64,000 bases of DNA from assembly GCA_964016885.1 (NCBI GenBank), contig OZ024741.1, positions 33,108,001 through 33,172,000 of the forward strand, in the 5' to 3' direction. Made by a program: the position numbers and the translations under genes. Of the stretch, positions 1 through 62,152 are shown one piece after another. The notes beneath the pieces were generated by a model. It was not told the origin of the DNA. It searched no databases and saw only the letters and a program-made list of their open reading frames with translations. Numbering within the stretch: the stretch's first letter is position 1; every line of letters starts with the position of its first letter. The DNA comes from Eledone cirrhosa. Lineage: Eukaryota.

Positions 1-3000
1 GAACTCGTAAAATATATAAAGCAGCACACAGACATCACGGAAAAAAATTACTACACTCCACCAACACCAAGAACTCTCCCGACAAACATAAGCATCATCG
101 AAATCTCATTAGAACAATACAAACCTTTAAAACAAAAATTCCCCAACGCAGTTGGAGACTTTAGAGGGACGGTTACCAAGAGGATATACACTGACATCCT
201 CTTGGAAACACCCATGACCAGCGAAATGGACGGTTCTACTGTCCCTTCACCACACGAACAAGGTAAGTGACCCTTTCTCATTTGCCCCGTTTCTCATCCA
301 ACATGGCTGTACTCAGAATAGGCAGTATAAATGCACGTGGCCTGGGGTCATCTTGGAAGCAGGGTCACCTGCTCAATGACCTCAGGTCACTAAACATAGA
401 TGTGGTGGCCATCAGTGAAACCAGAATCTCCGAGGCACGGGCCTTCGCACCGATCTTCGGCGGCTACGATGTATACGCATCTCCCAGCCGTCCAGGATCG
501 GGGGAGGGGTTGCCGTCCTTTTTCGGAGAGGCTTGGATCTCGCGATACGGGCCATCCTCCTGGACCCAGAAGGTCAGTCGGTGGTGCTGGACGTGACCGG
601 CAGCGAAGGCAATGCTTTCAGGCTAGTAGCCGTCTACGCCCCAACAGGGGCAGGACGGCCAGATTTCTTCAGACGTCTAGAGACCTTTACTGGAACGTCC
701 CGCTCTTTAGTGTTAGTGGGCGACTGGAACGGTATCTTGGATGCACGCTGGGATCGTGTGGGGCTAGTGGATAGGGGAGGAGGGTGCAAGAGCCTCACCA
801 ACCTGCTCAGACGTTTTGAACTGTCTGACAGGTATCGACTGGATCACCCGAATGTGCCAATGTGGACATGGACAAACCTCATCGGGTCATCCAGATCGTA
901 TCTAGATAGGGTATTCTGCAGGTAACTAGATAAGGCTAGTATAAGTTGTCCACAATTTAAAATAGTCGACTACACAGACCACAAATTTGTGATCTGTGAC
1001 ATCGACATAGACAGACTTCATAGACAAGGGCCTGGTTACTGGAAGCTGAACGCGTCTTTCCCGGCGCGCAAGGCCTACAGAGACCGGATTAGCGTATTGG
1101 TTAAGCGGGCGTTGACGGGAGCGGTCGTCAGCAACAGGTGGTGGTTCGCCCTGAAAAGGGCAATTAAAGTAGAGTCGATTAGGTTTAGCAAAGGAGTAGT
1201 GATAGAGGAAAATAGAATAGAGGGAGAACTAGTCAGAAAGATAGAAGAGGCGTTTAGGACAGGCATCGCAATCGACGTGCTTGCGGCGAGATTGACACTC
1301 GACCAATTCTTTAACGCAAAACACGAAGGCTGCGTTGTCAGAGCTAGAGGGGACAAAAGCCGTCCAATGGGCCCGGGTGGCAGAGGCGCGACGTGGCAAT
1401 AAAGCCACAATTCGGTCTTTGTCTGACCAAAACGAGTGCGTGATGCGCGATCCCGAGCGGATGTGTGAAGCTTTTCAGCAGCACTTTGCTGAACTGTTCG
1501 GGAGCGGCGGCGGCCCGGATCGGGACATGGACTTCAGTGCATACCTCGACGGATTGCCTCGGCTCTCGACGACCGCAGCACAGTGTTGCGAAAAGCCAAT
1601 AACAGCCGGTGAAATACGGGAAGCGATGGCTAACTGCACAAGAGGTAAATCGCCAGGTTTAGATGGTCTGCCCTACGAGCTTTATGCATTTATACCAGAC
1701 TTGTTCGGTGACCTCTTGGCAGACGTCTACTGCAACTGGCAGCAGAACAGGAGCATTCCCAGTTTTGTGAGCCGGGAGCAGTGGCGCTGCTGAGAAAAGA
1801 CTCGAACAAGGGGGATGTTATTGATAATTTCAGGCCCATAACTCTGCTAAACGCAGAGTTCAAGATTTTGGCCAAGGTGTTAGCAACGAGGTTGGCGCTT
1901 GTCGTCAAGGGTCTGGTGGGAGAGGCGCAGACATGCGCCATCCCGGACAGATCCATACACGACAACCTCCACCTCATGCGATACATCATAGAGAGGGTGG
2001 TTAAGGAACCTGGCAAGGGTGGGGCCCTGATCAACTTGGATCAATCCAAAGCATTCGATAGGGTCGACCATCGGTACCTGGCTGCGGTCCTCGAGGCAGC
2101 CGGTTTCGGGCCCGTTTTCAGGCGTTGGATCGCAGCAATGTACAGCGACATCTGCTCAGTTGTGAGGGTGAACAGTCACTTGTCGCAGGCGTTCAGCATC
2201 ATGCGCTCAGTCCGCCAGGGTTGTCCCCTCTCGTCTCTCTTGTACGTATTGGCTCTCGAGCCGTTACTGCACAAACTGGGGGCGATGAGGGGCGTCCCAC
2301 GCGAACTAGGATGCGGGAAATCCGAGTTGGCTTACGCTGACGACGTCACCGTGGCGGTGTCGAGCACCAGACACGTCCAGATTCTCGGCACCGCTCTCAA
2401 GGAATACGAAACGGTGACAAGAGCAAAGATAAACCAGGAAAAGTCGGTGGGCTTGCAGCTAGGCACCTGGAGAGGCAAGTCCATGCCGTCCTACAGCGTC
2501 GTGGGGCGTTGGACGGATGGACCGGTTAAATTGCTCGGGGTCTGGTTCGGACCGGACCTCCAGATGGAGAAAAACTGGAACGAGGTGACGAGCAGGGTGG
2601 CCCCCCTCACCCAGAAATGGGCTGAGAGGAAGCTGTCCCTGAAAGGCCAGGCGGAAGTGGCGAATGCGTACATCGCATCCGTCATCTGCTACCGCCTCAC
2701 CGTCGTCCCTTGCTCCAGCCCAACTCTCACCAAAATGGAACGCCTCCTCTTCCGCTTTTTGTGGAAGGGACGCGCTCCCATGGTCAGACGATCCATCTGC
2801 TGTCAACACCCGTTGCGTGGAGGACTGGACATGCCATGTCTGATGATGCGCAAACATGCGCTGAGGCTGCGACATCTCTGGTGCTTCCTTGATGGTGAAC
2901 GGGTGTGGTCGCCGTTCGCCAGGCACATTTTCCCACAGCTCGTCTCCTTGACGGAGCTGCAGTCCTGGGTCAGAAAAAGACCGAGGGATAGCGCTTGAAA

Positions 3001-4012
3001 ACTGGAATGTCTCCAGGCGCTCACTGCCCTCTCCCAGTTTGGCACCAGTATCGGTGGAACATCCACCTCGGCGTTCTATAGAGGACTAGTGGAGGGGAAG
3101 AGCGACGACGTTTTCGGAGAGATCCTGGGCGTCGAAGAAGATCAGCTGCTTGCTCTCTTCCGGAGAACTTTCAGCCCGGGGCCTATGGATAACTTCCAAA
3201 AATCCCTGGCCTGGCAGTGCTACCGAGGAGCGCTGCCGGTTCGAGATAAGCTCTACAGGCACGGAAGTGCCGTCAGCCAAGCCTGTCCGAGATGCGCGCA
3301 TAGCGACGAAACCGTTGTGCACGCACTCGTTCAGTGCCCGAGCATTGCTGACTTGTGGTGCTATGTCGAACAGTTGCTGTCACGTGTGGGACTGATCCGG
3401 TTGTCGACTGAGTCCATTGTGCAGATGGTCTCGCCGTCTTCCTTTGAGGAGGAAGGGCAGGCGGTTTTCATCTGCCTGGTGGCCATGGCGAAAGAGATTG
3501 TGTGGTGGACAAGGTTAAAAGGATTAAAGACAAACACTTTCCTCTTCGGCGAATCCCTGATTAACTTTTTCAAGTTTCACTTGAAGAGGAAAATCAGGGT
3601 GGAGAGGCAAGTGCTGCTTTCTAGCAAGTTTGTTGAATGGTGGGTAAATGTAGCGAGAATGGTCCGAGTGAACGGGACCACTCTGAATATACGTCTGTAG
3701 TTTGAGAGATGGAAAAATTGAGAGAGGGCGCTTGCCCTGGTAGTCAGGGTGGCCGTGGTCTTTTGTGTGGTTTTCGCCACGAGTAACCCTCTGAGGTTTC
3801 CCCCCTATTGGGGAATTTTTCATTGTTTCAATTTTCATTTTATAGTTTATATATATATATATGTTTTATGTCTTTTCTTTTCTTATATAAATAATAAAAA
3901 TATTTACACGCACAAAACCCACATCGTACCGTCCTGTTCTGTCTGTGATGTTTTTTTTGATGTCAGCCCTTGTGGCCAAAAAAGAAATCATTATTATTAT
4001 TATTATTATTAT
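1..4012 (+). mobile_element. Tx1/L1-clade non-LTR retrotransposon, degenerate; 5' part runs off the window
   Basis: End of an upstream ORF (TGA 268-270), ORF2 from ATG 303, 3' UTR 3701-3990, then a (TTA)n tail at 3990-4012. Confidence 0.9.
303..3700 (+). pseudogene. ORF2: APE endonuclease + reverse transcriptase + C-terminal Cys/His motif, broken by frameshifts and stops
   Basis: APE motifs INARGL, ISET, GDWN, SYLDRVF; PGYWKLN; KSPGLDGLPYE; RT motifs NFRPITLLN, LDQSKAFDRV, SVRQGCPLS, YADD; CPRC..ETVVH..C. Split over at least 6 ORF pieces. Confidence 0.92.
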
Positions 4013-10770: not shown

Positions 10771-10884
10771 TAAGAGGAATTCCAACTTTGTCTGATTTAC
10801 TCGTTTTATTTACAATCCTTTAAAATATATATAATGGTATTATAATGAAATAGTATGATAGAATATTAAATTCTAAGTGTTAAT

Positions 10885-10923
10885 TGAACAATTACTTTCA
10901 TGCTTTCGCAATCTTCAGGTTCA
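10885..10923 (-). ncRNA. Minimal type I hammerhead ribozyme motif
   Basis: Reverse complement: TGAAC-CTGAAGA-TTGCGAAAGCAT-GAAA-GTAA-TT-GTTCA. Confidence 0.7.
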
Positions 10924-11046
10924 TGATATGTGGTGACAGTCGAGTTTGCAATTTTCAACTGTTGAACGACAGTTGAAAACGACAGTTGAAAACGACAGTT
11001 GAAAACGACAGTTGAAAATTGCAAACTCGACTGTCACCACATATCA

Positions 11047-11085
11047 TGAACCTGAAGATTGCGAAAGCATGAAAGTACTTGTTCA
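11047..11085 (+). ncRNA. Minimal type I hammerhead ribozyme motif
   Basis: Stem I TGAAC/GTTCA; core CTGAAGA; stem II TGC-GAAA-GCA; GAAA; palindromic GTAC loop III; CUU site. Confidence 0.8.
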
Positions 11086-11252
11086 ATTAACACTTAAAAT
11101 ATTCTATCATACTATTTCATTATAATACCATTATATATATTTTAAAGGATTGTAAATAAAACGAGTAAATCAGACAAAGTTGGAATTCCTCTTATTAATA
11201 TAATCTTCTATACACAATCATACACACCCGTGTATATTTACCTATCTATATC

Positions 11253-11292: not shown

Positions 11293-12394
<1,102 letters not shown>

Positions 12395-12554: not shown

Positions 12555-13985
12555 ATAGAATACACAGGAATCAAAGCTATGTTCACAGCATTTATTCGCT
12601 TACAATTTTTTCATCCAAACTGAGGCTTGGAGTCTTCGAGTCATTTTTCAATGTTTGTACACATACATGACCTCCTCTCCAACGCAAGAGACATACAGAT
12701 ACATATGTATATATTGATGTACAGTGGGGTGATATATATTATATTATTTCTGAATGGCAATTTAAGTTCAAAAACAAAATCACATTAAAACAGAATCAAA
12801 GCACAACAAAAATTAAAATACAACATCAATGCAAAATTAAAATACAATCGGCAGTTAACGTAGATAATGCAAGAGGATAGTTTGTTAGTCAGTTGTAGTA
12901 GTGATTGTATGCATTAGTTACACGTGGGGCATGCACATGTGTCTTATTTATATATGATTATTGTGCGGCAGGGTGTTACATTTAATACAAGCACTTTAGG
13001 CGGGTAATCAAGAGTATTATAGAGGTTGTAGTGGTAAGGTATTTTTTGTATATGATAAAGAAGCTTGTGTGTAGAAAAATAGTATAAATGAGAAGCAAAA
13101 TAATGTTATGATTTTTGTATACACCACCATTTACGCAGTCAGGAAACGTAATATATAGTTTATATGTCCTTCACATAATTAACGATGATTTCGTATTGGA
13201 TGTTTGATGTATTAAGTTAAATTATTATAGCTTGTTGCGGCTCTGTGTTCTTTAATCCAATTTTATAGAGCATGTTGTTTCTGTTGCGAGAATTTACATC
13301 GTTTTATTGTAAATTCTCGCAACAGAAACAACCTGCTCTATGAAATTGGATTAAAGAACACAGAGCCGCAACAAGCTATAATAATTTAACTTAATACATC
13401 AAACATCCAATACGGAATCATCGTTAATTATGTGAAGGACATAAAAACTATATATTACGTTTCCTGAATGCGAAAATGGTGGTGTATACAAAAACCATAA
13501 CATTATTTTGCTTCTTATTTATACTATTATTCTACACACAAGTTTCTTTATCATATACAAAAAATACCCTGCGGCACAATAATCATATATAAATAAGACA
13601 CACGTGCATGCCCCACGTGTAACTAATGCATACAATAACTAGTACAACTGACTAACAAACTATCCTCTTGCATTATCTACGTTAACTGCCGATTGTATTT
13701 TAATTTTGCATTGATGTTGTATTTTAATTTTTGTTGTGCTTTGATTCTGTTTTAATGTGATTTTGTTTTTGAACTTAAATTGCCATTCAGAAATAATATA
13801 ATATATATCACCCCACTGTACATCAATATATACATATGTATCTGTATGTCTCTTGCGTTGGAAAGGAGGTCATGTATGTGTACAAACATTGAAAAATGCT
13901 CCGAAGACGCCAAGCCTCGGTTTGGATGAAACAATTGTAAGCGAATAAATGCTTTGAACATAGCTTTGATTCCTGTGTATTCTCT
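12555..13985. mobile_element. Large foldback (arms ~700 bp) with hammerhead motifs near the outer ends; unique tail 12395-12555
   Basis: AGAATACACAGGAATCAAAGC... pairs with ...GCTTTGATTCCTGTGTATTCT; short central loop near 13299-13307; ~70 bp extra in the left arm. Confidence 0.9.
13898..13942 (+). ncRNA. Hammerhead motif, U4C variant (degenerate mirror at 12598-12642, -)
   Basis: GCT-CCGAAGA-CG-CCAAGC-CTCG-GTTTGG-AT-GAAA-CAATTG-TA-AGC. Confidence 0.6.
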
Positions 13986-14895: not shown

Positions 14896-14898
<3 letters not shown>

Positions 14899-15029
14899 TT
14901 TTAATATAGATGAGATTCTACAGGACTAGAACTGTTTCATTCTTTAGAAATCATGTAGAATCTCATCTATATTAAAACTTTTATACTCTGCAATGTATTG
15001 TGGTTACCTCCGATTCAACCCGGAATAAC

Positions 15030-18253: not shown

Positions 18254-18580
18254 GCGAGAATCGCATTTCGGCGAGTAGTAATTAGCGAAACGCAACTTCC
18301 GATTTATGTTGGCAAGCGGTCTATGGACCCGAAAAGACGAGAGCAATAAACATAAGTTTAAAGGCCATACAAACTGAGACGATGGTTAAGAGGCCATTAA
18401 CCACCTAGGCCGGGTTCAATCACAGTAAGTAAGGTACTCAAAACATAGCAGAGTATAAATATTTAATATAGAAATGGAAATGGCTTCTACAGGACTAGAA
18501 CTGTTTCATTCGGGAGAAATCATGATTTCTCCCGAATGAAACAGTTCTATTCCTGTAGAACCCATTTCTATATTAAATAT
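18253..18580 (-). mobile_element. Tail plus foldback centred in the hammerhead core, in (TA)n
   Basis: Palindrome 18459-18580 centred at AAATCA|TGATTT; arms read ATGA-TTTCTCCCGAAT-GAAACAGTTCTA(G/T)TC-CTGTAGAA. Confidence 0.75.
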
Positions 18581-18590
18581 ATATATTATG

Positions 18591-18708
<118 letters not shown>

Positions 18709-21822: not shown

Positions 21823-21942
21823 GAGGTGAGTTTTATTGTAGCACAATAAAGCAATGCAAATATAGGATAAGTAGCACTCAACAGTTTATAGGACTGGAGT
21901 ATAAATAATATAAAATCAAAAGATGGTTAAAAGAGTTCCATG

Positions 21943-22013
21943 TATTTTATTATGCGCATTTCAAAAACAAATATCATCGTGGGATGATATTTGCATTCTC
22001 ATCAGATAAAATA
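21943..22013 (-). ncRNA. Type I hammerhead ribozyme
   Basis: Mirror of 22429-22499; CTGATGA and GAAA intact. Confidence 0.85.
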
Positions 22014-22428
22014 GGGAGACATGATATGAAGCTTAAAAAACACTTGCGAGCAGTGAAGTGTTAAATCAACATATGAAAAATAAAATAAGATGGATATATG
22101 AGATTGGGAAAAAAGGAAAGGAAGGGGGGAAGGAAAAGTATTATCTTACAACGGTTTTTTTTAATTTCTCTCTGTGAGACAGTGTTTCTCAGTATTAAAG
22201 GTTATCTCTCTCTCTCACTCATTTTCTCCTCCTCTCTCACCCTTCCTTCTTATACTCCTCTTCCGTCATTTTCTTATTACATTCTTTCTTCCTCTTCCTT
22301 ACCTTTTCCTTCCCCCCTTCCTTTTCTTTTTTTCCCAATCTCATATATCCATCTTATTTTATTTTTCATATGTTGATTTAACACTTCACTGCTCGCAAGT
22401 GTCTTTTAAGCTTCATATCAGATCTCCC

Positions 22429-22499
22429 TATTTTATCTGATGAGAACGCAAATATCATCCCACCATGATATTTGTTTTTGAAATGCGCATAATAAAATA
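22429..22499 (+). ncRNA. Type I hammerhead ribozyme
   Basis: Stem I TATTTTAT/ATAAAATA (8 bp); CTGATGA; stem II GAACGCAAATATCAT/ATGATATTTGTTTTT; GAAA; palindromic TGCGCA; AUA site. Confidence 0.88.
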
Positions 22500-22843
22500 C
22501 ATAGAACTCTTTTAACCATCTTTTGATTTTATATTATTTATATATATATATGATATTTTAACGCATCACAACATATTTTTACAGCGGATATGACAATTTA
22601 AATTTGAATATCATATGGCTTTCTTTCATGGTTCCGAGCTTTTTAATTTGAAATCTTCAAGATTAAATGTTTTCTAAATTAACACACAATTCATTCGGCA
22701 GTTTAGATTTGAATAGTCATAATTAGTATAGAAACTACGTATTGTGTTTTTTTTATTTCACTTTTTATACCTCCCTAAACACTTCAAACCAAACTCAAAG
22801 AAGCTTAAGTAGCAATCAACAATGGGAATGTTCATATATGTGC

Positions 22844-23779: not shown

Positions 23780-23989
23780 CATATATATATAATTATATAT
23801 ATATATATTTCGTTCTGAATTTGTTTAGCAAGATTCTTTATCTGAAATCGTGTGTTGAAACCGATATTGTTATACTTTGGGAGGGTCATGTTGCCAATAA
23901 GAAACACACGCACCAGTTGCTTTCACTTCAATTTATTATAATAAATTTATAATAAATTTATAAATTTATAAATTTCTGGTTGGTTGGTT

Positions 23990-26900
23990 GGAGAGAGAAA
24001 CTAATATTTATAAGCCTTATACGTCCTGAAGAACAGTACATTACTCAAGAATGTGATAAGCACTTTAACAAGAAACTAAAGTGGCTTAAGCAGATAAAGC
24101 TAAATCAGGATACTATAGAGAATACCAATAGATATCCCGACAAAATTGACGGTATAAATATGGCCGACACCTCATTAAGAGATGAGTTCAACAACAACAA
24201 CAACACAAATATATACGGCAACACAATAATAGATAACGATGAGTTATCTGTATTATGTCTACCCCCAAAATTTGCGACATTCAAGAAGGTAAATATGATT
24301 AGTTGTCTGTCAGAAATAGAAAAATCATTTACAAAACTACGCTGGAGCCTCAAAAACAAAAACAAAAACAAAAACAAAAACAAAAGTAACAATATACGCA
24401 CACACATATACAACACACATCCCAACAACAACAGACACACAGACACAAACAACAATAACAAAAACACACACACCAACAACAACAACAAAAATAATAACAT
24501 ACCCAGAAACAACAACAACAGACACGCAGACACAAACAACAATAACAACACACACAACAATACTAACACACACGGAGACAACAACAACACACATCAACAA
24601 CAGCACACATCAACAACAACAACACACACACATTCAATGCCTCTCACCACCACCACAGTCTTAACAAACACACAGACACAGAAAACAAGTAATGACAGTA
24701 GGACAGAAATCACAGAAATAAGGGAAAGTAATAGGATTAAAAGGAGAAGGGAGACTAAGGACAAAGAAAATAACCAAGACGAACACACAGACTCATAAAA
24801 TAGGGTAGATAACAACAATGAGCCAGTGGAAAGAGACAGGAGTAATTATGAGAGACATAGAAACAACCATGAGGCTGTTGGTGGAAATAGAAATAGAAAC
24901 AACACAACTAACAATAACAATAGCACTAGTACACATAAAGCAGCAGCCTGGAACTCTACGTTTTATAATCCCTCCGATAAATCGTTCGACCTGCGACGAG
25001 TCCACTACACGACTTTACCATTCAACAAACGCACGCAATTGCCGTCGTAGGTCGATGAACAAACAGAAGCACAATTTAGTATAGCTAGATCCGAACTTAG
25101 AAATATTATAGAACAGTATAGCAAGAAGCATAATAGAATGGAGGTCCAGCAACTGGGAGAAAAATCTGCAAATGGCTTGCGTAAGCTCATGCAGCGCTCG
25201 CGTAATGGAGAGATAGCATGCTTTCCAACAGACAAGTCTGGCAGAATGTCGGTTGACAGCCTGCCAAACTACATCCAGGCAATGCAACCCCACATCACTA
25301 ACATAAGAGAGGTAACACCACAGGAGCATGAGGATAGAGAAAAAGCCCTCAATGCCCATATGGTGATGTGGACGAATATAATGCAGCCCAACAAAAGGAC
25401 TGCCAACAACTTCCAGGCCTGGAACAATGACGTGCCGGCGTTGTATGGGCTTCGAAAAGACCATAAAACGGGCAGTGACCCTGTCGCGGGACCACCAACA
25501 CGGCCAGTCTGTGGAGCTAACATTGCTAGTAACTACAGACTGTCCTACTTCCTCTCCCTGATCATACGCCCCATCATTGAAATGTCCCCAGATGTATGTG
25601 ACAGCACGGAGGACCTCCTCAGCAGAATCAGCGTGAGTAACCGATCTAGGGACCTAACAAACTGCATAATAGGTAGTATGGATGTTGTGTCCCTGTATCC
25701 ATCTATTGACGTGGATTTTGCTGTGGAGAAATGCGTAGAAATGATCAGTGAGAGCAATGTTGAGTTCCGTGGGATTGATACCAGTGAGCTGGGACTCCTA
25801 CTTAAACTTACCTATAGTAATAATTACCTAGACACATATGACCTTAGCAACATGTGCCCTACAAGACCAGCAAGAGGCAGACCACCTACCATTACCTCAA
25901 TGGCCAAGAAAACCCACACAGATAGATGGAACGGGTGGACCAGAGCCATACGGACACCTGAAAACCACGATGAACTGAAGAAAATGATTGCACATGCGGT
26001 AGGGGCCAGCATAAAACTAACCCTTAAGGAACATATGTTCAAATTTAATGGAAAAACATATGCCCAAGAGGAAGGAGCAGCCATTGGTGTTAGCATTGCA
26101 GGCGACATAGCTAACTTATTCATGGTATGGTGGGACAGTAGACTTAAACTTAAAGAACAATTAGAAGACCCCTTAACCCTGATAATGTACTCCCGCTACG
26201 TTGATGATATAAACATCGTAGTTAAGACACCCCACTAGAGAACAGTCAGGAACTAGAAAAAAACACAATGGAAAGCATCCAGCAAATAGCTAACTCCATC
26301 CACCAGAGCATTAGAGTTACTATAGACTACCCAAGTAAACACCCCAACCATCGATTACCTGTACTAGACACAGAGCTCTGGCTAGATACTATTAATAATA
26401 AAAAAACAAATCCTCCATTCCCATTATGCCAAACCCATGACTTCCAAACATCTGATCCACCGAAACTCGGCCATTTCGGACCATACCAAAATCAACATAC
26501 TGATTGCGGATTTGGTACGGGTGATGAGAAACGTGTCCCGCATGTGCAACCCCGAAGAACTAGAGAGACACATACAACACTTCATCCACCGTATGCAGTT
26601 CTCTGGCTACAATCAGAGTGATAAAATCAGAGTGTATAGAGGAGCCAGAACCCAATGGGGAAAAAATGATAAATAATGACATAAATGGGACCTGCCCCTT
26701 GTATAGGAGCAAATTTTGGAATAGAATAGAAAGAACTAGGAACAAGGCTAATAGAATAAACTCATGGTATGATAGCAATAAATACCAGAGTGTAATGTTC
26801 ATCGATACAACCCCTAGAGGTGAATTAGCTTACAAATTTAGAAGGGCCCTAAATAAACATAAACTCAATATTAAGATAGTAGAAAGACCAGGTAGCTCCG

Positions 26901-27328
26901 TAAAAACACTCATGAGCAAGACATACCCTTTTCAAAGACCCTCATGTATGGATAAGAAATGTATAACCTGTAAAATAAAGCCCCATATTAACTGTAAAAC
27001 TAGAAATGTAGTGTATAGCATAAGATGTACCGAAGGACAATGTAGAGACAAAAATATAGTGTACATAGGTGAGACAGCTCGTAGTGTAGGGGAACGGATA
27101 AATGAACACTGGCGAGACCTTCAAGATAGTAAAGAATCATCTGTACTCTACCAACATGCTAAAATAGAACACAAGGGTAAATTAGAGAACATAGAAATAA
27201 AAATAGAATCTACACACAGAAAAGACGCAATGTTTAGACAAATTACAGAGGCAATAAACATAAAAGAATTACAACCAAAATTAAATAGAAAATATGAGTG
27301 GAACAGCAATATCACAACTTACAATTAA
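23990..27328 (+). pseudogene. PLE ORF: RT + C-terminal GIY-YIG endonuclease (Naiad/Neptune-like Cys linker)
   Basis: PTDKSGR, LYGLRKDHK, RPV, SMDVVSLYPSID, QEEGAAIG..MVWWD, RYVDD, LPVLD, CMDKKCITC..NCKTRNVVY..YIGETARSVGERINEH..RQITEA; in-frame TAA 24796 and TAG 25048, several frameshifts. Confidence 0.92.
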
Positions 27329-28328: not shown

Positions 28329-28590
28329 AAGTTGAAAATGGGACAAAATACGAAAAACAGAACTACAGAAATGGGTGAAAAATAATTGGGAACTTAACAC
28401 TCTGATCTTCATCTGACTCCTCTAAACATTGAAACACCGGGAGTTTAGAGGGTTTATATATACCCGATTCCTCTAAACTCCCGGTGTTTCAATGTTTAGA
28501 GGAGTCAGATGAAGATCAGAGTGTTAAGTTCCCAATTTTTTTCACCCATTTCTGTAGTTCTGTTTTTTGTATTTTGCCCCATTTTCAACT
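28329..28590. repeat. Foldback, arms ~125 bp
   Basis: AAGTTGAAAATGGG...CCGGGAGTTTAGAGG is inverted at CCTCTAAACTCCCGG...CCCATTTTCAACTT. Confidence 0.88.
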
Positions 28591-28653: not shown

Positions 28654-29240
28654 TCATCCATACCCAAGGGCAGGAATCATCATAGCCTGGTCATCGTTCA
28701 TCAGTTTTGGCACCATCTTCGCGCAGACTTTCCGCATGTCCAAATATTTAGTGAGAATCTTCCAGATGCTGTCCAGATTCATGCCCAGCTCGTTTGCCAT
28801 TAGTCGAACAGTCAGCCGACGATCGCTACGCACCATCTGCCTGACGCGCTCAACGTTGACCTCAGTCCTGGTTGTTGAGGGCCTTCCGCTCCTGGGGTCA
28901 TCTTCCACGTCCTCGCCTCCTTCTTTAAACCTCTTGCACCACTCAAAAACACGAGAGCGTGACATCGTCTCATCTCCATACACTTGCTGCACCAATCCCA
29001 GTGCTTCTGGCGGAGTTTTCAAGTTTGTTCATTACTCTGTGCTCATTGCTTGACGACCTGAAACAGAGGACATGTATATAAAATTATAAAGAAAAAAGTT
29101 TGATCGCTGCAGAGAACTAAGATTACAGTTACATACTCCAGGGGGATTACTTTCAAGGAGAAAACTCTTAGTGTGAAGTTTGGGTTTTAAATATGTCTTT
29201 TGTGACATCAGTCCTGCAACTTTTCTGACAGACCTCGTAT
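28654..29240 (-). mobile_element. Mariner remnant: N-terminal HTH fragment (-) joined to a C-terminal GDYF segment and TIR (+)
   Basis: VYGDETMSRSRVFEWCKRFKEG..DDPRSGRP..DRRLTVR..KVCAKMVPKL; GGGGATTACTTT near 29141; terminal CTTTTCTGACAGACCTCGTA. Confidence 0.85.
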
Positions 29241-30849: not shown

Positions 30850-33655
30850 TGTATTATATAACTTTGAAATGTTTTGACCAGTATTGGCCCAGGCTATGTC
30901 TAACTTAATAGCACCACCTGGCGAAGTCTTTCAATTCAGGATTTGGGCACCATGGCCCATTCGAGAAGAGAATTACTGTTTGCGGAGACATATCCGTGTG
31001 TGGGTGGTTCGTCCGGGATTACTTGGAAGAATTTGTCCAAAGACTTCTTGAATTTTGTGTGGTCAGTTTCTGTTTTGACGTGTCCTGGTGTGATGTTGAA
31101 GAGAGCAGGGCCAATTGAGGTGAAATAATTGTGCCGTATTGTTGTTATGAGTTGCGATTTAGATTTTTGTTTGGGACGGATAGCACGGAGCCCAAGCCTT
31201 GGGTGTATTTTGAAGGTGATGCCAACATGATTTTGGCAGTGCTGATGAAACATTTTCCACATCATGCAGATAATATAACGCTCACAGCGACGTTGGAGTG
31301 AGTAAAGTTTCAGCTTTTCTAGTCGACCCCAGTAGTCAAGATCTGACATGCCATCTATCTTTTTCGTGATTGCCCTTTTGGGAGCTTCAAGTTTCATGAT
31401 ACTTTGTTTCGTGTGGGGAGACCACAGTGGACAACAGTATTCAAGGTGTGGTCGGGCAAAAGTGGAGAAGAGAAGGATAATGGTGTGGGAATCTCTCGAC
31501 TGGAAGGTTCTGAGGATCCAGGAACACATTCTGAGGGCCATGTCAACTTTGCTGCTTATATGCGTGGCCCAGCTTATGTTGCTATCCACGGCTAATCCCA
31601 AGTCTCTGATGTTGTTAGATGCACGAGAGTTTCACCGGAGGGAAGGGAGTACGGGAGTTTCAGAGCATCCTCTTTTCCAAAGTGGATCAGTTCGAATTTG
31701 TCTTCGTTCAGTAACATGTTGTTCTTTTCCGCCCATTGGGTAACAGCCAGTAGGTCTGACTGAAGGCTTATCCGGTCATCCACGCCATTGATGACCTTTT
31801 GGAGCTTGGAATCATCAGCGAAAATTCTAATGTTGCTGTGTTTGATGATGTCAGTGATGTCATTAATATAGATGATGAAGAGAAGTGGGCCCAACACAGT
31901 GCCTTGTGGGACCCCACTACTGACTTTGGCTGGGCTGGATTTGACTCCTTCGACTACAACATGTTGGGTTCTGTTTGACAGGAAGCACTTGATCCACTGC
32001 AGCAGCTTTCCAGTGACACCAATATTGGACAGCTTTCTCAGTAGAATGTTGTGATCAACCCTGTCAAAGGCCTTGCTGAAATCAAGGTAGATAACATCAG
32101 TGTTGGAACCCTCTCCCAAGGCTCTCAAAATATCATCAAATTGATGCAGTAGCTGCGTCAAGCAATCCCTTCCATTACGGAATCCATGCTGGTTGGAGTT
32201 CAGCATATTGTTACTCTCAAGGAAGTGAGTCATTCGCGATCTCACCACTCTCTCAAATACCTTAATGATATGAGAGGTGAGTGAGATTGGACGGTATTTC
32301 ACGGCAAGGGATTTGTTTCCTTTTTTGAAAACTGGGACAACAGACTGGGATAGAAGGTTTTCTGGCACATATCCAGCATCCAGTGAGTTCCGCCACGGAT
32401 TGGCAAGAGGAGATGCAAGTTGGTGTTGACACGCCTTCAAGACACAAGCAAGGAACCTATCGGGACCTACTGCTGAATTATGCTTGATTTCCTTTATTGC
32501 CGCTAAGACATCAGGGGCGCCAAACGTTATGTCCGATAAGGTGTAATGGGGAGTAACATCGCCGATACAGCCCAGATCGGCCATATCAGGATTGCTGAAA
32601 ACAGAGCAGTATTGTTTCTGCAGTATCTCACCCATGGTTTTAGCATTGTCTTGAAGAGTGCCATTTTCATCAATTAGAGGGCCAACAGTTGAGCCAGTGA
32701 TTTTGTGTTTTTTTGCAAATGAAAAGAACACTTTGGGATTGAGTTTGATCTTCTCAATGGCCCAGGCCTCTTCAGCTCTTCTCTGATTGTTGATGATAGA
32801 CATCATATTGTTTTGGAGATTATGTTTTTTAATCTCTAGTGATGAAATGGCAGTCAAGTTGATGTGTTGCTGCTGACAGTATTTCAGCTTGTTGATTTTT
32901 TTGTTAGTTCTCTTAATTTTCCTGATGAGCGTTTTTCTATTTCTAGGGATTCTGCTCTTAGATTTGTTTATAGTTCTTAATGGGGTGTGTTTTGTACATA
33001 TGTTTGTAACAGTGTCCACAAATGTCTTCCAGGACTTTTTGATGTTAGTGGGAGTGTGAGTGTGCGTGAAGGACCAGTCGACATGTGCAAGATCTTGACT
33101 GATCGCTTCCCAGTTTGCATTGTGGAAATCCATAGCGTCAAACGGATGGACAGGAGAGATAACATTGGTTTGTATATTCCACTAATCTCAGATCACAGAG
33201 AACCATGTCATGATCAGAGAGTAGAGTTTTCTCCACTGCAATATTGTGGATAGTGTCAGTGTGATTGCTGAAAATTAAGTCTAGGACGTTTTTGTGACAC
33301 CTCGTTGGTTCGAGCACCAGTTGGGACAGGAAGAAATCATCCATGAAGTCAAGAAGCGATTCCACTGCTTCCCTTTCAGAGGTTGAGGCAGAAGAACCTG
33401 GTGGCAGGCTGTTTGTGGACCAGTCAACTCCGGGGAGGTTGAAGTCCCCCATCATTAATATGTTGTCAGGGTGACAATCTTGGATGAAACATTTTATGCT
33501 GTTGATGCATTCCTTGAAGCATGGTAGAGGCGTTTGGGGTGGCCTAATGAGCCCGACTACTATTAGGTTGTTGGTTTGACTGAATACAGTGAATGCTTCG
33601 CAGTATCCATTATAAAATATGTTCATAGCCTCTGTTGAGAAAGAATTATGGACAT
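30850..33655 (-). mobile_element. CR1-type LINE, 5'-truncated (partial APE + RT, frameshifted)
   Basis: MGDFNLP, PTR..NVLDL, SDH; YRPISLTS, QHGFR, YLDFSKAFDRV, SGVPQGTVLGP, FADD, RPHLEYC..WSP. Confidence 0.9.
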
Positions 33656-33682
33656 ATATATATGGACATATGTATATATTAT

Positions 33683-33765
<83 letters not shown>

Positions 33766-35131: not shown

Positions 35132-35222
35132 AATAGAAAGATATATATATATATATATTTATATATGAAAGACGTAAAATAAGAAAATTTTAAAAATTAA
35201 AAATTAACTTATTCAAATTTTC

Positions 35223-35304
35223 ACTCCAACTAATTAGTTTCTGTAATGGGATAAATATAGTTACACAATGTAACTATCGAGAATTCATTACGTCATCAGG
35301 GAGT
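35223..35304 (-). ncRNA. Type I hammerhead ribozyme
   Basis: Reverse complement matches 36376-36457. Confidence 0.83.
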
Positions 35305-35759
35305 CTATTCTCAGCTAAGTTCCCAGGCAATGCGCGGACACTAGGAACCCATATCAAAATAATAATTCAGTGGATGTAATAAGCTAGCAGTGGATGTAAT
35401 AAGCATAGCACTGAAAAAGTTCACTGCTTCTGGTCAGTGGTGAATTCTAAAGAATCAATCACGTGACACTGAGGTTAGTCAGTTAGGAGTGGGGTGGTAT
35501 TATGACAACAGCCTACTACTACTACTATGAATTAGCAGTAGATTTAGCAAGTTTGCTCAACAAATAATTTGGAGATAAATATAGAGAATTAATACATCTA
35601 CAAACATATGCGTACAGATGTACACTAATTCTAGTAAATATATAAGTTATGTCAAAGTACCTAGGTAGTTCAATGCAGGGGGATGCAGAACAATTATATG
35701 AAAGACGTAAAATAAAAAAATTTTAAAAATTTAAAATTAACTTACTTACTAAAATTTTC

Positions 35760-35841
35760 ACTCCAACTAATTAGTTTCTGTAATGGGATAAATATAGTTA
35801 CACAATGTAACTATCGAGAATTCATTACCTCATGAGGGAGT
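35760..35841 (-). ncRNA. Type I hammerhead, G5C change (CTCATGA)
   Basis: Second tandem copy with a mutated core. Confidence 0.65.
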
Positions 35842-36375
35842 CTATTCTCAGCTAAGTTCCCAGGCAATGCGCGGACACTAGGAACCCATATAAAAATAAT
35901 AAATCAGTGGATGTAATAAGCTAGCGGGGACTAAGTAAGTTAATTTATAATTTTTAAAATTTTCTTATTTTACGTCTTTCATATAATTGTTCTGCATCCC
36001 CCTGCATTGAACCACTTAGGTACTTTGACATAACTTATATATTTACTAGTATTAGTGTACATCTGTACGCATATCTTTGTAGATGTATTAATTTTGTATA
36101 TTTATCTCCAAATGATTTGTTGAGCAAACTTGCCAAATCTACTGCTAATTCATATTAGTAGTAGTAGGCTCTTGTCATAATACCACCCCACTCCTAACTG
36201 ACTAACCTCAGTGTCACGTGATTGATTCTTTAGAATTCACCACTGACCAGAAGCAGTGAACTTTTTCAGTGCTATGCTTATTACATCCACTGCTAGCTTA
36301 TTACATCCACTGAATTATTATTTTTATATGGGTTCCTAGTGTCCGCGCATTGCCTGGGAACTTAGCTGAGAATAG

Positions 36376-36457
36376 ACTCCCTGATGACGTAATGAATTCT
36401 CGATAGTTACATTGTGTAACTATATTTATCCCATTACAGAAACTAATTAGTTGGAGT
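36376..36457 (+). ncRNA. Type I hammerhead ribozyme
   Basis: Stem I ACTCC/GGAGT; CTGATGA; stem II GTAATG/CATTAC with inner ATAGTTACA/TGTAACTAT; GAAA; palindromic CTAATTAG; GUU site. Confidence 0.85.
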
Positions 36458-36963
36458 GAAAATTTTAGTAAGTAAGTTAATTTTTAATTTTTACAATTTT
36501 CTTATTTTACGTCTTAAATATAATTGTTCTGCATCCCCCTGCATTGAACCACCTAGGTACTTTGACATAACTTATATATTTACTAGTATTAGTGTACATC
36601 TGTACGCATATGTTGGTAGATGTATTAATTCTCTATATTTATATATATATATATATACATATATTGTTATATTTGGGGAGGGTTATATTGCCAAATAATA
36701 ACAAAACACACTCAATATTTGGTTATATGCATATATATATATATATATATATACATAGAAAATATATATGTATAGATACAATTATGCATAAATATTTGTA
36801 TGTACATATATATTCATATAAATATAGATCTAAACAATTATTTATATATATATATATATGCATATATATGTATATAAATTTAAACAAAAATACACATCAC
36901 TCACACACACACATATATATATATATTGACATGCTTATATATATAAAATTATATTCACACACA

Positions 36964-39393: not shown

Positions 39394-40348
<955 letters not shown>

Positions 40349-42179: not shown

Positions 42180-45100
42180 ATATGGAAGGTCATCTTCAGA
42201 GGCTAAGAGAAAGAAAACAGCGATCTGAAGAAAGTGAAGAAGTTCGGCATGCCCGTCTAGCTGCTAACAGAGCCCAAACAGCTTTAGCACGAGCTGATGG
42301 GTGCTTTTTATTATGACCCCCAAAAGGACTACAGCAGTAATCTAAAAAATAAACATTGGGAAAATGAACAAATTCTGCCAGTATTGTGGTGCCAAGAAGT
42401 AGGCAGCAGAAACATCAAGTCTATGCTGCTCAAAAGGCAAAGTGAGCCTTAAAACAATACAAGAACCTCCTGAATTTCTGAAGAATATGTTCCTTCAGCA
42501 TACACCAGAAACACGACACTTCAATAAATACAACATAAAATATAATTCTGCCTTTCAAATGACATCTTCTGTGGCTGACAGTAATGTGACTGACTTTAGA
42601 TTCTGTACAACTTATAAAATTCAGGGACAGTGTTACCATTTAATGGGTGGCCTTCTGCCACTTTCACAGGAGCCTCACAAATTTGTGCAGGTTTATTTCA
42701 TGGGTGGAAATGAAACACAGGCACAACAAAGATGTACAAATGTCCATGGTGGATTGCAGTTCTACATAGTCATAAAGTTACAAGAAATGCTTCACCAACA
42801 TCACATGTAGGTCAGTGTATTTAAATATGCACTGGAGAATATGAACAACACCAGAGATCGTAAAATCATCATTAGGGCAGACAAACGCCTAGCTTCAGAA
42901 CATGAAAGCATATTCAACGCACCTGTCACTGATGAAGTTGCAATCATAATGGTTGATGAACAGCATGAACGACGTGACATTGTTTTGCAAAAACGAAGTG
43001 GACATTTTGAGCGAATTTGTGAAACTCATAGAGCCTATGATTCACTCCAATATCAGCTTATCTTTTGGAATGGTCAAGATGGATATCATTTTCAGTTACG
43101 GCAAATCAGCCCAGGAACAGGACAAGAAACTGGCGATCAATCAGCTGCAAAGAAATCTATGCTTCTCATTTCATGGTACATGATCACTTCAACCAAGTTC
43201 TGCGATTCAAAGAAATAACCAGCCAGTTCATGGTGGACATGTATGCCAAAATTGATACAGAAAGATTGGGTTTTCTGCGAAGGAATCAAACTAAGTTGAG
43301 GGCAGATAACTACATCCACCTTAGAGATGCCATCAATTCTGATGTTGACCCAAGAATTATTGGCCAGCCAGTCATACTACCATCAAGCTACACGGGAGGA
43401 CCACGTTACATGCATGAACGTACGCAAGACACAGTGGCCTATGTAAGAAAATTTGGTCGGCCAGCTCTCTTCATTACATTTACATGCAATTCAAACTGGT
43501 CAGAAATATAAAATGAATTATTTCAAAATCAAAAACCAAAGGGTCGACATGACTTCATTAGTCGGGTTTTCCATGAAAAGCAAAAAAAAACTCATCTGGC
43601 TCCTAAAAGAAGGAAGAATCTTTGGTGAGCTTAGTTCTTGGATGACCACTAGTAAGTGGCAGAAGAGAGGTCTTCCTCACTCGCACACACTAATCTGGTG
43701 CAAGGAGAAGATAATACCAGGTGATGTTGATAAGATCATTTCAGCAGAGTTGCCTGATAAGGGTGGTGATCCAGTGCTCTTTGAAACCATCAAGTCCAAA
43801 CTCATTCATGGTCCATGTGAAGTCATCAACCATTATCTTAGAGCATTTATTCGGGAAACTCGGACTGACAATAATGGATACCCCCTTTATCGTAGGCCTA
43901 GACCAGAACATGGAGGCAATACTGCAAGCCTAATAGTTCGAGGAGAGGAGCTGACCATAAAAAATCAATGGGTCGTCCCACACAACAAATTGTTGTGTAA
44001 ACTTTTAAAAGCTCATATCAATGTTGAGTATTGCAGCTCCGTCAAGGCAATCCTATATGTCACAAAATATATCATCAAGGGCAGTGACATGGCTACCTTT
44101 ATTACTGACAAAGAACTAAATGATGGTGGGCTGGATGAGGTCAAACGGTATCAAACAGGTCGATACATCTCCAGCAATAAAGCTATCTGGCGAATCTTTG
44201 GATTTGATATCCACTAACGCCACCCAACAGTGGTCAACATCGCAGTTCATCTGGAAAATGGTCAGAAAGTGTACTTCACTGAGATCACTGCTCATCGGTT
44301 GGCACAAGCATCACATGACACTACACTAACTGCTTTCTTTAAATTCTGCCAGAATGATGAATTTGCTCGATCCTCCTATATGCTGAAGTCCCAACATATT
44401 ACACCTGGACCAATTGCAAGACCTGGAATCGAACAAAGCAGGGTCATTTAGTGGGAGGTCATGAAGTCAAGTCAAGTGATGCTATTGGGCGTGTTTACAA
44501 TGTCCATCCCAACAACAGAGAATGTCTTTATTTACGGCTACTTCTGCATACTGTTCGAGGACCAACGTCATTGGAGGATCTTAGGTGCTTCAGAGGAAGG
44601 GAGTGTGCAACATACCAAGAAGCATGTAAACAGCATGGACTCCTGCATGGCAATGGACACTGGAAGAAGTGCCTAGAAGAAGTAGCAATCACTCAAGTAG
44701 CCAGTTAAATAAGACAATTATTTGCTATTATGCTCATAGCATGTGGAATTGATGAAGCTCATCTACTCTGGCAGGAGTACAAAAACAATATGTCGGACGA
44801 CTATCTACACCTAGCCCGAAGACATCATGGCAATATGTATATGGAATATACCCCCAGGATTTACAATCAAGCTCTCTGTGACCTGTCCCATCGAATTCAG
44901 GCAATGTATAGCACATTGGCTAACTGTGGGATGCCAGAGCCAGATGAAGAAATGGAGGTAGCACAAGACATTTTTCAGGAGACAAACTACGATATTCAAA
45001 CATTGCGTAAGTTTGTGGATGAAAATGAACCTCGATTGATGGATGACCAGAAATACGCCTACCACAACATCATAGAAGACATTCAAGATGGCAGGGGAGG

Positions 45101-46282
45101 ACTTTTCTTCATCGATGCTTCTTCTGGCACAGGCAAGACATTCCTCATAAAGTTCGCCAAAAGCAACATATTTCCCGTGCTGTCGCTTCAAGTGGCATTG
45201 CAACAACACTTCTGGATGGAGGAAGAACTGCACACTCCATGTTTAAGCTGCCCATAGATCTCTCACGGCATGAACAATCTTTTTGCAACATCAAGAAGAA
45301 CTCACCCAAGGGCAAGCTTCTGCAAACATGCAAGATGATAATTTGGGATGAAGCTACTATGAGCCATAAAGGAGCAATTGAAGCTTTGGACGATAAGGGA
45401 TCTGAGAGAAAATAGTTGCGTAATGGGAGGAGTGACAATGGTTCTTGCTGGTGATTTCAGACAAACTCTGCCTGTAAATCTTCGAGGGACTCAAGCTGAT
45501 CAGGTCAATGCCTGTCTGAAAACATCCTATCTCTGGCCCCGCTTTCAGCTGCTGAGCCTTACAACCAACATGCGAGTGCACTTAACTGGTGACGAAGGTG
45601 TCAGTGAGTTTGCCATCCAACTACTTAAATTGGGAAATGGACTTCTTGAAAAGGACTCCAATGACCATATTCAGTTGTCATTTGGCCATATCATTGACAC
45701 AGAACAAGAACTGATTGCCAGAGTGTTTCCAAACATTCAGACCAGGCAATGTGATCTGAAATGGCTCTGTGAACGAGCAATCTTAGCACCTAAAAATGGT
45801 GCTGTGAAAGAAATCAACAGAAGGCTGCTGGAGATGTTACCGGGAGAGAAAATATGCTACAAATCAGTTGACACAATCACTTCTCAAGACCAGGTTGTAA
45901 ACTATCCAACTGAATTTTTGAACAGTCTTGAACAAACGGGAATTCCTCCACACAACCTGATACTGAATCTTGGAGCAACGGTTATGCTACTTCGCAATCT
46001 GGATCCTCCAAAACTTTATAATTGCACAAGACTCATCATCAAAACTATGATGTCCAATCTTCTAGAAGCTGCAATCATGTCAGGACAATTTGCCGGTGAC
46101 AATTGTTTCATTCCCAGAATACCTCTGAAGCCAACTGATTTGCCATTTGAATTTCAAAGACTTCAATTTCCGATCAGGCTCAGTTTGCCATGACCTTTAA
46201 TAAATTTCAAAGGCACTCATTGAAAGTCGTTGGGTTGAATCTGGCAGATCCTGTCTTTTCACATGGTTAACTCTATGTTGGC
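42180..46282 (+). pseudogene. Helitron A: Rep (HUH) + Pif1-family helicase, degenerate
   Basis: YNSAFQMTS, ILPSSYTGGPRYM, LFITFTCN, WQKRGLPHSH, HINVEYC, YVTKY, GTGKTF, LAGDFRQTLP, RAILAPKN, RLQFPIRL. Confidence 0.93.
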
Positions 46283-50836: not shown

Positions 50837-51126
50837 AATTGAGTATATGTTGGTTGTTTACCGACACCTCAGTATGCAGATTGGAGCACTCGACGAAGTA
50901 CGCAAGTTGGTTTGTTTATTCCGGAGTAATGTAAAATAATTAAGTCTAATATGTAAAATTTGGCTTCATTTATTATAAATTAAAAATTACTGCTATATAT
51001 ATTTCGGTGACAGCAATTCGGACTGCCTGAAGAGGTCACAGCCAATGATGGCTGTCTCCGAAATATATATAGCAGTAATTTTTAATTTATAATAAACGAA
51101 GCCAAATTTTACATATTTGACTTAAT

Positions 51127-51132
<6 letters not shown>
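50835..51132. mobile_element. Foldback plus tail with hammerhead, in (TA)n
   Basis: 50932-51014 is inverted at 51051-51132; the left copy stops within stem II. Confidence 0.82.
51022..51076 (+). ncRNA. Type I hammerhead ribozyme
   Basis: Stem I ACTGC/GCAGT; CTGAAGA; stem II GG..ACAGCCA/TGGCTGT..CC; GAAA; palindromic TATATA; AUA site. Confidence 0.85.
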
Positions 51133-51168
<36 letters not shown>

Positions 51169-61279: not shown

Positions 61280-62147
61280 TCTAACCCAGAGAACCCATTC
61301 GATGTCTCTATGGGTTCTCTTGACAGTGCTGACGTGTGTGATTTAGTCGGACTATTCCTCCTACACACACTTAAAGAGAAATTCCCTAACCATACCTTTG
61401 GGCTTTATCATGACGATGCTCTAATACTTTCCGATACCACTATAGGCCATAACTTAGATAGATTCAGGAAAGACTTAATAATAACCTTCGCTAGTTTTAA
61501 TCTTAAAATTACTATTGACACTAACCTTTCTAATGTTAATTTTCTAGATATAAACCTACTGTTCTTATAAACCGTTCCATAAACCAAATGAAAATTTAAA
61601 ATATATAAATAAAGGCTCTTGCCATCCTCCTATAGTTTTTAAAAACCTTATCCCTAATATTAGCCGTAGGATCTCCACCCTCTCTTCCTCAGAAGCTATT
61701 TTCAATAAGGCTATAATAAAGCCCTTCAATAATAAAGCCCTTCAAAATAGCGGATTTAGCGAACCGAGTAAGTACATACCCAACAATACTAACTCCTTTA
61801 AACATAATAATAGGAAAAGAAAAATAATCTTTAGCAGTTAAAACTAATGTAGGCAAAACATTCCTAGAGCTCTTAGATAAACATTTCCCTAGAACACATA
61901 GATACTATAAGATCTTCAATTGAAACTGTGTCAAAATCAGCTACTCCTGCGGTCCCTCTATTAAATTCTATATCCTCAATAAGAAAATACCCAGAGAACA
62001 TCAAAATTGCTCCTGTAGAGTCAAAAGTGAATGCCCATTACAAGGTAAATGCAACACTAAAGCCATTGTATATGAGGCTAAAGTGACTCACGTCCAGAAA
62101 TAGCCGTCGAAACGGCTTGAACTCTGCCGTCGGGATCATACTTTTTC

Positions 62148-62152
<5 letters not shown>
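61280..62152 (+). mobile_element. PLE fragment (second clade): RT end, linker, start of GIY-YIG, fused to a hammerhead 3' half
   Basis: [77 protein letters not shown]; then TAGCCGTC-GAAACGGC..GCCGTC. Confidence 0.85.

Follow-up and report, generated by a model that had tools for sequence, protein, structure and literature searches.

The closest described systems are the Penelope-like elements (PLEs) and, as regards priming, the twin priming of L1, in which a second primer is placed within the RNA, at a stretch resembling the target, and the 5' part of the copy is inverted. Inverted and truncated pseudo-LTRs (pLTRs), optional tails and the targeting of TA repeats are known features of PLEs (PMC8557442; PMC3846280). 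The start site of Penelope lies in the pLTR (PMC2377424), and dual hammerhead motifs on opposite strands have been noted in metazoan PLEs (PMC4209133). The purified Poseidon protein (Anolis) is described as nicking and extending both strands without need for hammerhead cleavage, with reverse transcription starting internally at two positions, which correspond to the tailed and the tail-less end (PMC11167929). Very short PLE insertions, with a median of 128 bp, have been seen arising de novo in Chlamydomonas and were ascribed to 5' truncation (PMC9977147). For palindromic copies, self-priming on an antisense template is favoured in PMC3846280, which leaves a sense template possible.

The window analysed here is a stretch of 64,000 nucleotides from a 3.0 Gb animal genome rich in TA repeats. 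Its insert at 18410-18581 is an unremarkable stub belonging to a highly abundant repeat, referred to below as family 1, and consists of a tailed arm and a tail-less inverted arm of a unit of approximately 133 nt, lying within TA repeats. The unit is numbered from the first base of stem I of its hammerhead motif (+1), and its tail ends near +133. The features of the insert are:

18410..18523, minus strand: tailed arm, unit +10 to +126
18522..18581, plus strand: tail-less inverted arm, unit +10 to about +67
18522..18523, no strand: head-to-head junction, where the arms have the self-complementary AT (+10/+11) in common
18527..18536, plus strand: predicted stem II, 3 bp (TTC/GAA) with a 4-nt loop, closed by a U-U mismatch
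18541..18556, plus strand: GAAA end and predicted stem III, ACAG/CTGT with an 8-nt loop
18555-18557, plus strand: GUA cleavage triplet, as read from the sequence
18558-18563, plus strand: 3' strand of stem I, with one mutation
18490-18482, minus strand: intact mirror copy, in the opposite arm, of GUA and the stem I 3' strand
18580..18706, no strand: (TA)n run, the likely target on the tail-less side

The palindrome is nearly perfect between 18477-18522 and 18523-18568 (46 bp, 2 mismatches, centre 18522/18523), and continues to about 18459/18581, past a 6-nt duplication in the left arm. A sequence-only reading had placed the centre at ATCA/TGAT, leaving only ATGA of CTGATGA followed by TTC/GAA and GAAA, and comparison of the two arms, both of which start at this point, agrees. 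The insert is nevertheless larger than that reading allowed, and asymmetric: the minus strand arm, which holds the 3' part of the hammerhead and the AT-rich stretch, runs on to 18410 through a tail that has a 10-nt deletion and is missing its final ~7 nt, whilst the plus strand arm merges into the TA run, making its end ambiguous. The arms differ by point mutations and one indel. The 'GUC site' of the earlier reading sits in loop III, which holds CTAG in family 1 and has its G mutated on the plus arm of this copy; the cleavage triplet is instead the GUA at 18555-18557. Similarly, TTCTACAG belongs to the mirror arm: it corresponds to the 3' part in reverse complement, and had been taken for the stem I 5' strand. 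The intact consensus predicted to contain TTCTACAG has only 25 matches in the genome, all 25 of which are arm-to-arm junctions. Judged by its sequence, the window copy is unable to fold a ribozyme in either arm, being without the 5' strand of stem I and the CUG. The same centre recurs at unrelated loci (L017, L026 and L030).

The native motif was defined on 26 copies in which the 5' side is proven by upstream template. It reads as a type I hammerhead, with the core CUGANGA / GAAA / NUH and stems I to III: stem I is RGCTTC/GAAGCY, the core CTGATGA is followed by an extra U and a 3-bp stem II, and on the 3' side there are GAAA, a 4-bp stem III and the GUA site, giving a predicted cut after +45. 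The native core occurs in exact form at least 2,618 times in its own genome, as against none for the reversed control, which excludes chance. In the 26 copies the core is invariant and 95.4% of cells are paired; two pairs of stem I have double, compensatory changes, the outer pair being A-U in 13 and G-C in 9 of 25, and the covariation score was reached by 0 of 500 shuffles, although relatedness between the copies inflates such scores. The G10.1-C11.1 pair that closes stem II, a typical rather than a defining feature, is replaced by U-U, which suggests that the hammerhead may be weakly active. An Rfam scan of the window detected no hammerhead, returning only microsatellite-driven miRNA-like matches below the gathering score, and at the gathering score nothing was found in five loci with intact motifs. 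The folds of monomers in RNAfold were not significant (z -0.7 to -1.2); hence the structure rests on core identity and covariation.

The ends of family 1 copies were mapped in a tail-anchored sample, in which a 43-nt tail pattern had 991 exact matches, the first 100 listed yielding 90 loci, all on one contig. Both arms were mapped to a profile and the breakpoints curated by eye, with some ambiguity due to microhomology; in about 12 loci the automated breakpoints had run 2-8 nt further upstream through a gap and were reset. This sample favours young copies, and tailed ends below +82 are not visible in it. End rates were calculated for 157 arms of the 90 loci, excluding two inverted arms that end below +51. 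Per base at risk, the rate is flat at 0.91%/nt across +11..+51 and is 0.92%/nt at the cut site itself (+44..+47); it then rises to 7.2%/nt at +3..+10, here termed the shoulder, and to 38.5%/nt at +1..+2, the cliff, and is 1.2%/nt further upstream. About three quarters of the arms reaching +2 stop there. Counted per insertion (n = 90), 32 stop at +1/+2, 19 at +3..+10 and 30 earlier, with 9 passing upstream. Among the first 100 matches of a list anchored on the core, at least 25 go on upstream into the promoter, as do four of seven incidental arms in locus flanks, a proportion above the quarter seen in the anchored samples.

That breakpoints fall within ribozymes, as the sequence-only reading observed, is borne out by 126 of 159 arm ends lying at +1..+51; the implied link to the core or cut site is not, given the flat rate. 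That breakpoints lie inside the ribozyme is mainly a consequence of its place at the 5' end of the unit. There is no peak of ends at the cut site among the 157 arms, which speaks strongly against ends defined by cleavage.

The longer family 1 copies reveal what lies above +1. A pattern spanning the promoter has 920 matches in the genome, a few of them junctions. In these copies the TATA box begins with a T at -30 and has CCAAT boxes above it; of 32 that bear the promoter, 31 have a C at -1, making a pyrimidine-purine step at -1/+1. A first T at -30 is the spacing of a Pol II start. Where ends at +1 abut TA runs, the base at -1 is mostly a G found neither in the template nor in the target: among 90 ends of G-start copies it is G in 61, the TA-run base in 22, the template C in 3 and another base in 4, and the excess is present in both of the sets from which these ends derive (26/41 and 35/49). 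Among 30 ends of A-start copies it is G in 14, C in 11 and A in 5. None of 30 inspected copies beginning GGG (of 413) continues into the promoter. The equivalent TA-abutting pattern at +18, searched in one register, had no matches, a control that shows the pile-up and not the specificity of the G to +1. Several stubs (L108, L266, L273 and L280) begin GTG rather than GAG or GGG at -1..+2. Summed read depth across +1 falls from about 0.7-1.7 million to 8-24 thousand in the contigs of two runs of unspecified type; such depth does not measure copy number, is raised by the similarity threshold and could stem from the assembly's own sample, and the drop is not counted as support.

We infer that +1 is a Pol II start and that the extra G would be a copied cap, the explanation given for the untemplated 5' G of L1 and SVA (PMC3287187). 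It would also fit non-templated addition at any RNA end; either way, the G marks run-off. Against this interpretation, 11 of the 30 A-start ends have the template C.

The sister insert and two further families allow these features to be compared within the window:

14896..15029, no strand: sister insert of another family 1 subfamily, two-arm build with TA runs on both sides
14954 to 14896, minus strand: the sister's inverted tail-less arm, reaching +10
14954 to 15029, plus strand: the sister's tailed arm, starting at +42, one base at 14954 being common to both arms
11386..11574, no strand: family 2 repeat, unrelated to family 1, palindrome 11386-11493 plus tail
50932..51133, no strand: third family, its plus arm (51015-51133) holding a whole predicted type I hammerhead

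Arm mapping places the sister, noted previously at 14896-14980, in the family, broken at the core just as had been described. In family 2, the longer copies contain a whole predicted type I hammerhead, the core of which is the U3-A8 variant reported in PMC4209133 and the fold of which is not significant. They also have a TATA-like box, and the pile-up site of the family, inside loop II, is 29 nt below it. It is at this site, the +1 of family 2, that the tail-less minus strand arm of the repeat at 11386 begins, the plus arm beginning 6 nt later. Only about 6 of 80 family 2 arms in the loci pass the site, as judged by eye, and 578 genome matches adjoin a TA run there. The U3-A8 variant, the TATA-like box and the pile-up site were noted from loci L186:877-975, L159, L099 and L026 together with 11386-11574 and 62092-62151 in the window. 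The pile-up therefore keeps its distance from the TATA-like box whilst moving relative to the ribozyme, and so follows the promoter; an RNA starting in stem II/loop II would carry only the back half of the ribozyme. There is no excess of G in family 2 (T 85, G 7, C 7 and A 1 in the first 100 of the 578), a test that is weak, since T is both template and target there, yet not supportive. Summed depth across its +1 drops from about 3-4 million to 0.16-0.24 million in the same two runs and is likewise not counted as support. In the third family, the earlier description of the copy at 51014 as ending in stem II applies to the left arm, which by eye carries the longer tail; the other arm carries the whole hammerhead (fold z -2.28), and copies are too few for an end test. 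The tails of families 1 and 2 have in common a short motif, ACTCT...GTATTGAGTAC (11505-11530 and 18430-18460), the rest being unrelated; ACTCT...GTATTGAGTAC is a candidate protein-binding signal.

An inverted arm is present in 69 of the 90 tail-anchored loci. Both arms are tailed in only 3 of the 69 pairs, with 127 tailed and 138 tail-less arms overall; leaving out these three, the arm reaching further is the tailed one in 27 pairs, the tail-less one in 31 and neither in 8 of the remaining 66. In 13 of the 66, the tailed arm starts at +59 or later and the inverted arm reaches further, so that they overlap little or not at all. The positions of tail-less ends follow the target, with 15 of 17 at +55..+57 in (TC)n and most at +60, +62 or +67 in (TA)n (n = 92). 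Subfamily marks agree between the arms of one copy in 46 of 70 cases, compared to 21.8 when shuffled, and in 38 compared to 13.5. Concordance so far above chance implies one template or one source per copy, and rules out two random RNAs per insert. These data would fit a single RNA primed by each of the two cut strands, strand displacement taking place where the arms overlap.

Such an insertion likely works as that of a Penelope-like element, on the strength of its layout: an inverted 5'-truncated copy at the 5' end, an optional tail at one end only, and a hammerhead and promoter, recognised as sequence features, in the position of a pseudo-LTR. The parent open reading frame was not found, in that a search of upstream DNA, an ORF scan of the loci, a search with a Neptune-like protein and tblastn of the flanks detected no linked RT-GIY-YIG frame; four PLE proteins gave a match in one of 27 flanks, to a separate, deleted fragment. 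The 27 copies with a far-upstream motif run into TG/TA repeats approximately 330 nt above +1 and have nothing family-specific in common beyond, and in the longest copies (L237-L262) this boundary makes a unit of about 465 nt. Among the loci examined, no copy had a common continuation past the tail, as a partial tandem pLTR-ORF-pLTR would, and no head-to-tail array of 468-nt units was seen, same-strand cores being only 218-252 nt apart, in four places. The genome also contains a very young autonomous PLE family (L336-L343), with a 775-aa RT and GIY-YIG frame, an upstream frame and no hammerhead match, of which 150 scored copies are 98-100% identical over the query; its 3' ends are both tailed and tail-less, and it has inverted copies. 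It was ruled out as the parent, having other ends by sequence.

We consider it probable that the palindrome consists of two very short copies joined head to head, likely made when a Penelope-like reverse transcriptase, primed internally from two strands, ran off the 5' end of a capped sense RNA. Both nicked target strands would prime on the same uncleaved sense RNA, one at the tail end and the other at the AT-rich stretch (+55..+67); both cDNAs would then run toward the cap, or drop off at a rate of about 1% per base, and microhomology of 0-4 nt would join them head to head. In the end-forming step the hammerhead would be a passenger, and the arms passing +1, about a quarter, would derive from read-through RNA. 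The window copy (+10/+10) would belong to the shoulder just below +1, either because its ends were trimmed when they were joined or because the tip of the hairpin was lost afterwards, two routes between which the data do not discriminate. A further claim, which we hold tentatively and find almost as easy to accept as to doubt, is that the default product is a strong-stop-like cDNA, primed approximately 130 nt from the cap from both cut strands and run off, with the stubs integrated head to head and the template capped, sense and uncleaved. If so, only read-through RNA could carry the whole family 2 hammerhead, as the start there is inside the ribozyme.

The sharing of subfamily marks between arms would also be produced by a single cDNA that reaches the 5' end of the RNA, folds back at a self-complementary word and copies itself, with the asymmetry arising later. 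The commonest junctions are indeed hairpin-like, with 3-4 nt loops at +1..+7, and palindromes of this kind have been interpreted in print as the outcome of self-priming, with an antisense template (PMC3846280). However, snap-back of a tailed cDNA predicts that the tailed arm should be the longer, contrary to the 27 against 31 observed, and does not account for the 13 pairs with little or no overlap, whilst an antisense template predicts no G at the sense +1; later spacer inversion could even out which arm is longer in palindromic copies. On balance we regard this explanation as unlikely.

More doubtful still is a SINE-like, non-autonomous source, the DNA of which begins at +1 with the G such that the cliff is simply its boundary. 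The high copy number, the recurrence of some junctions letter for letter and the lack of a parent frame in the loci and flanks searched are all in keeping with such a source, but the extra G is found in both the G-start and A-start subfamilies, the upstream promoter is present in longer members of these subfamilies (the 920 matches above), and the junctions are of many kinds, comprising dozens of types in both orientations.

The link implied by the sequence-only reading, whereby the ribozyme would set the breakpoints, self-cleavage or its fold halting the reverse transcriptase, seems very improbable. Even with 126 of the 159 ends inside +1..+51 and the family 1 cliff coinciding with the completion of stem I, the rate is flat through stems III and II with no cut-site peak, largely refuting the cleavage version; the enzyme would meet the 3' edge of the fold first, yet the cliff is at the 5' edge; and neither the stop in loop II of family 2 nor the extra G is explained. 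We give least credence of all to later decay of longer palindromes by centre deletions, a MITE-like DNA element or read fold-back artefacts, since, despite hairpin-tip loss between two AT words giving exactly the centre of the window copy and palindromes in TA runs resembling MITEs, non-inverted ends also adjoin TA runs at +1 (90 matches, none at +18), tails are one-sided, junctions fall into dozens of types, arms differ by point mutations and an indel, and opposite-strand joints are present in short-read contigs too. Decay may be the origin of the shoulder at +3..+10, though not of the cliff. A MITE of the Tc1/mariner type would have fixed terminal inverted repeats and a uniform internal sequence, unlike these copies, in which ends and centres vary from one to the next and tails are one-sided.

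Other repeats are found nearby. A broken PLE at 23956-27328 has RT-like and GIY-YIG-like frames (Pfam below cut-off), and a related end at 39497-40228, with a hammerhead-like core near 39983, lies in inverted orientation 12 kb away. Further palindromes or inverted repeats of other families are at 10874-11096, 13038-13568, 21900-22542, 28379-28542 and 35202-36642, some with hammerhead-like cores (11052 and 22437). The stretches at 400-3700, 30936-33764, 42403-49237 and 28654-29028 we take, by motif, to be degraded LINE-like sequence, Helitron-like helicase frames and a mariner-like transposase fragment.

Family 1 may already be represented in Repbase-type annotations. A search of literature listings and of the openly available papers cited here found no description of a start-site cliff with an extra G. 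The pattern of the family bears on the question, left open in PMC3846280, of whether palindromes arise via antisense self-priming or from a sense transcript, and on the role of the hammerhead (PMC8557442; PMC11167929). A cliff 30 nt below the TATA box with an extra G points to capped sense RNA, and would take the hammerhead out of the end-forming step. Were the strong-stop reading true, thousands of stubs would record the transcript start to the base, and would be evidence against the antisense self-priming model. The family-level pattern is testable, since it predicts precisely what should be seen by cap mapping and in the in vitro system already established.

In comparison with known systems, family 1 shares with the EN+ Penelope-like insertions, as described in PMC8557442 and PMC3846280, the head-to-head inverted copy, the tail at one end only, the (TA)n target, a hammerhead with TATA/Inr in the terminal repeat and microhomology at the 5' junction. 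It differs from those descriptions in having two arms that are mostly under 135 nt, ends that cluster at +1 together with an added G, a tail of ~65-75 nt rather than 30-40 and no linked ORF. Poseidon in vitro likewise generates two types of 3' end, with and without tail, copies from uncleaved RNA, uses an AT-rich target and primes a short way downstream of the hammerhead; however, its reverse transcription is described as starting without homology to the cut DNA (PMC11167929), whereas here the tail-less ends match the target repeat, and the account, as far as consulted, mentions neither run-off at the start of the transcript nor an inverted join. The type I/minimal hammerheads reported from metazoan PLEs (PMC4209133) agree with the family 1 motif in topology, in an additional U separating A9 from stem II, in a palindromic word within loop III and in a covarying stem I, the family 1 motif differing from them in its 4-bp stem III, its 3-bp stem II without G10.1-C11.1 and its failure to match Rfam at the gathering score. 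As in the account of non-LTR retrozymes in bioRxiv 10.64898/2026.07.22.740005, the repeat is non-coding, has a type I hammerhead and is related to PLE pLTRs; unlike them, it was not seen to repeat head to tail at unit spacing in the loci examined. L1 twin priming resembles the scheme proposed here in the internal second priming and inverted 5' part, and complete L1 5' ends also have an extra G (PMC3287187 for the G). The arms of L1, by contrast, do not overlap and belong to an element that is kilobases at full length, whereas here the arms often overlap and a 'complete' copy is ~133 nt.
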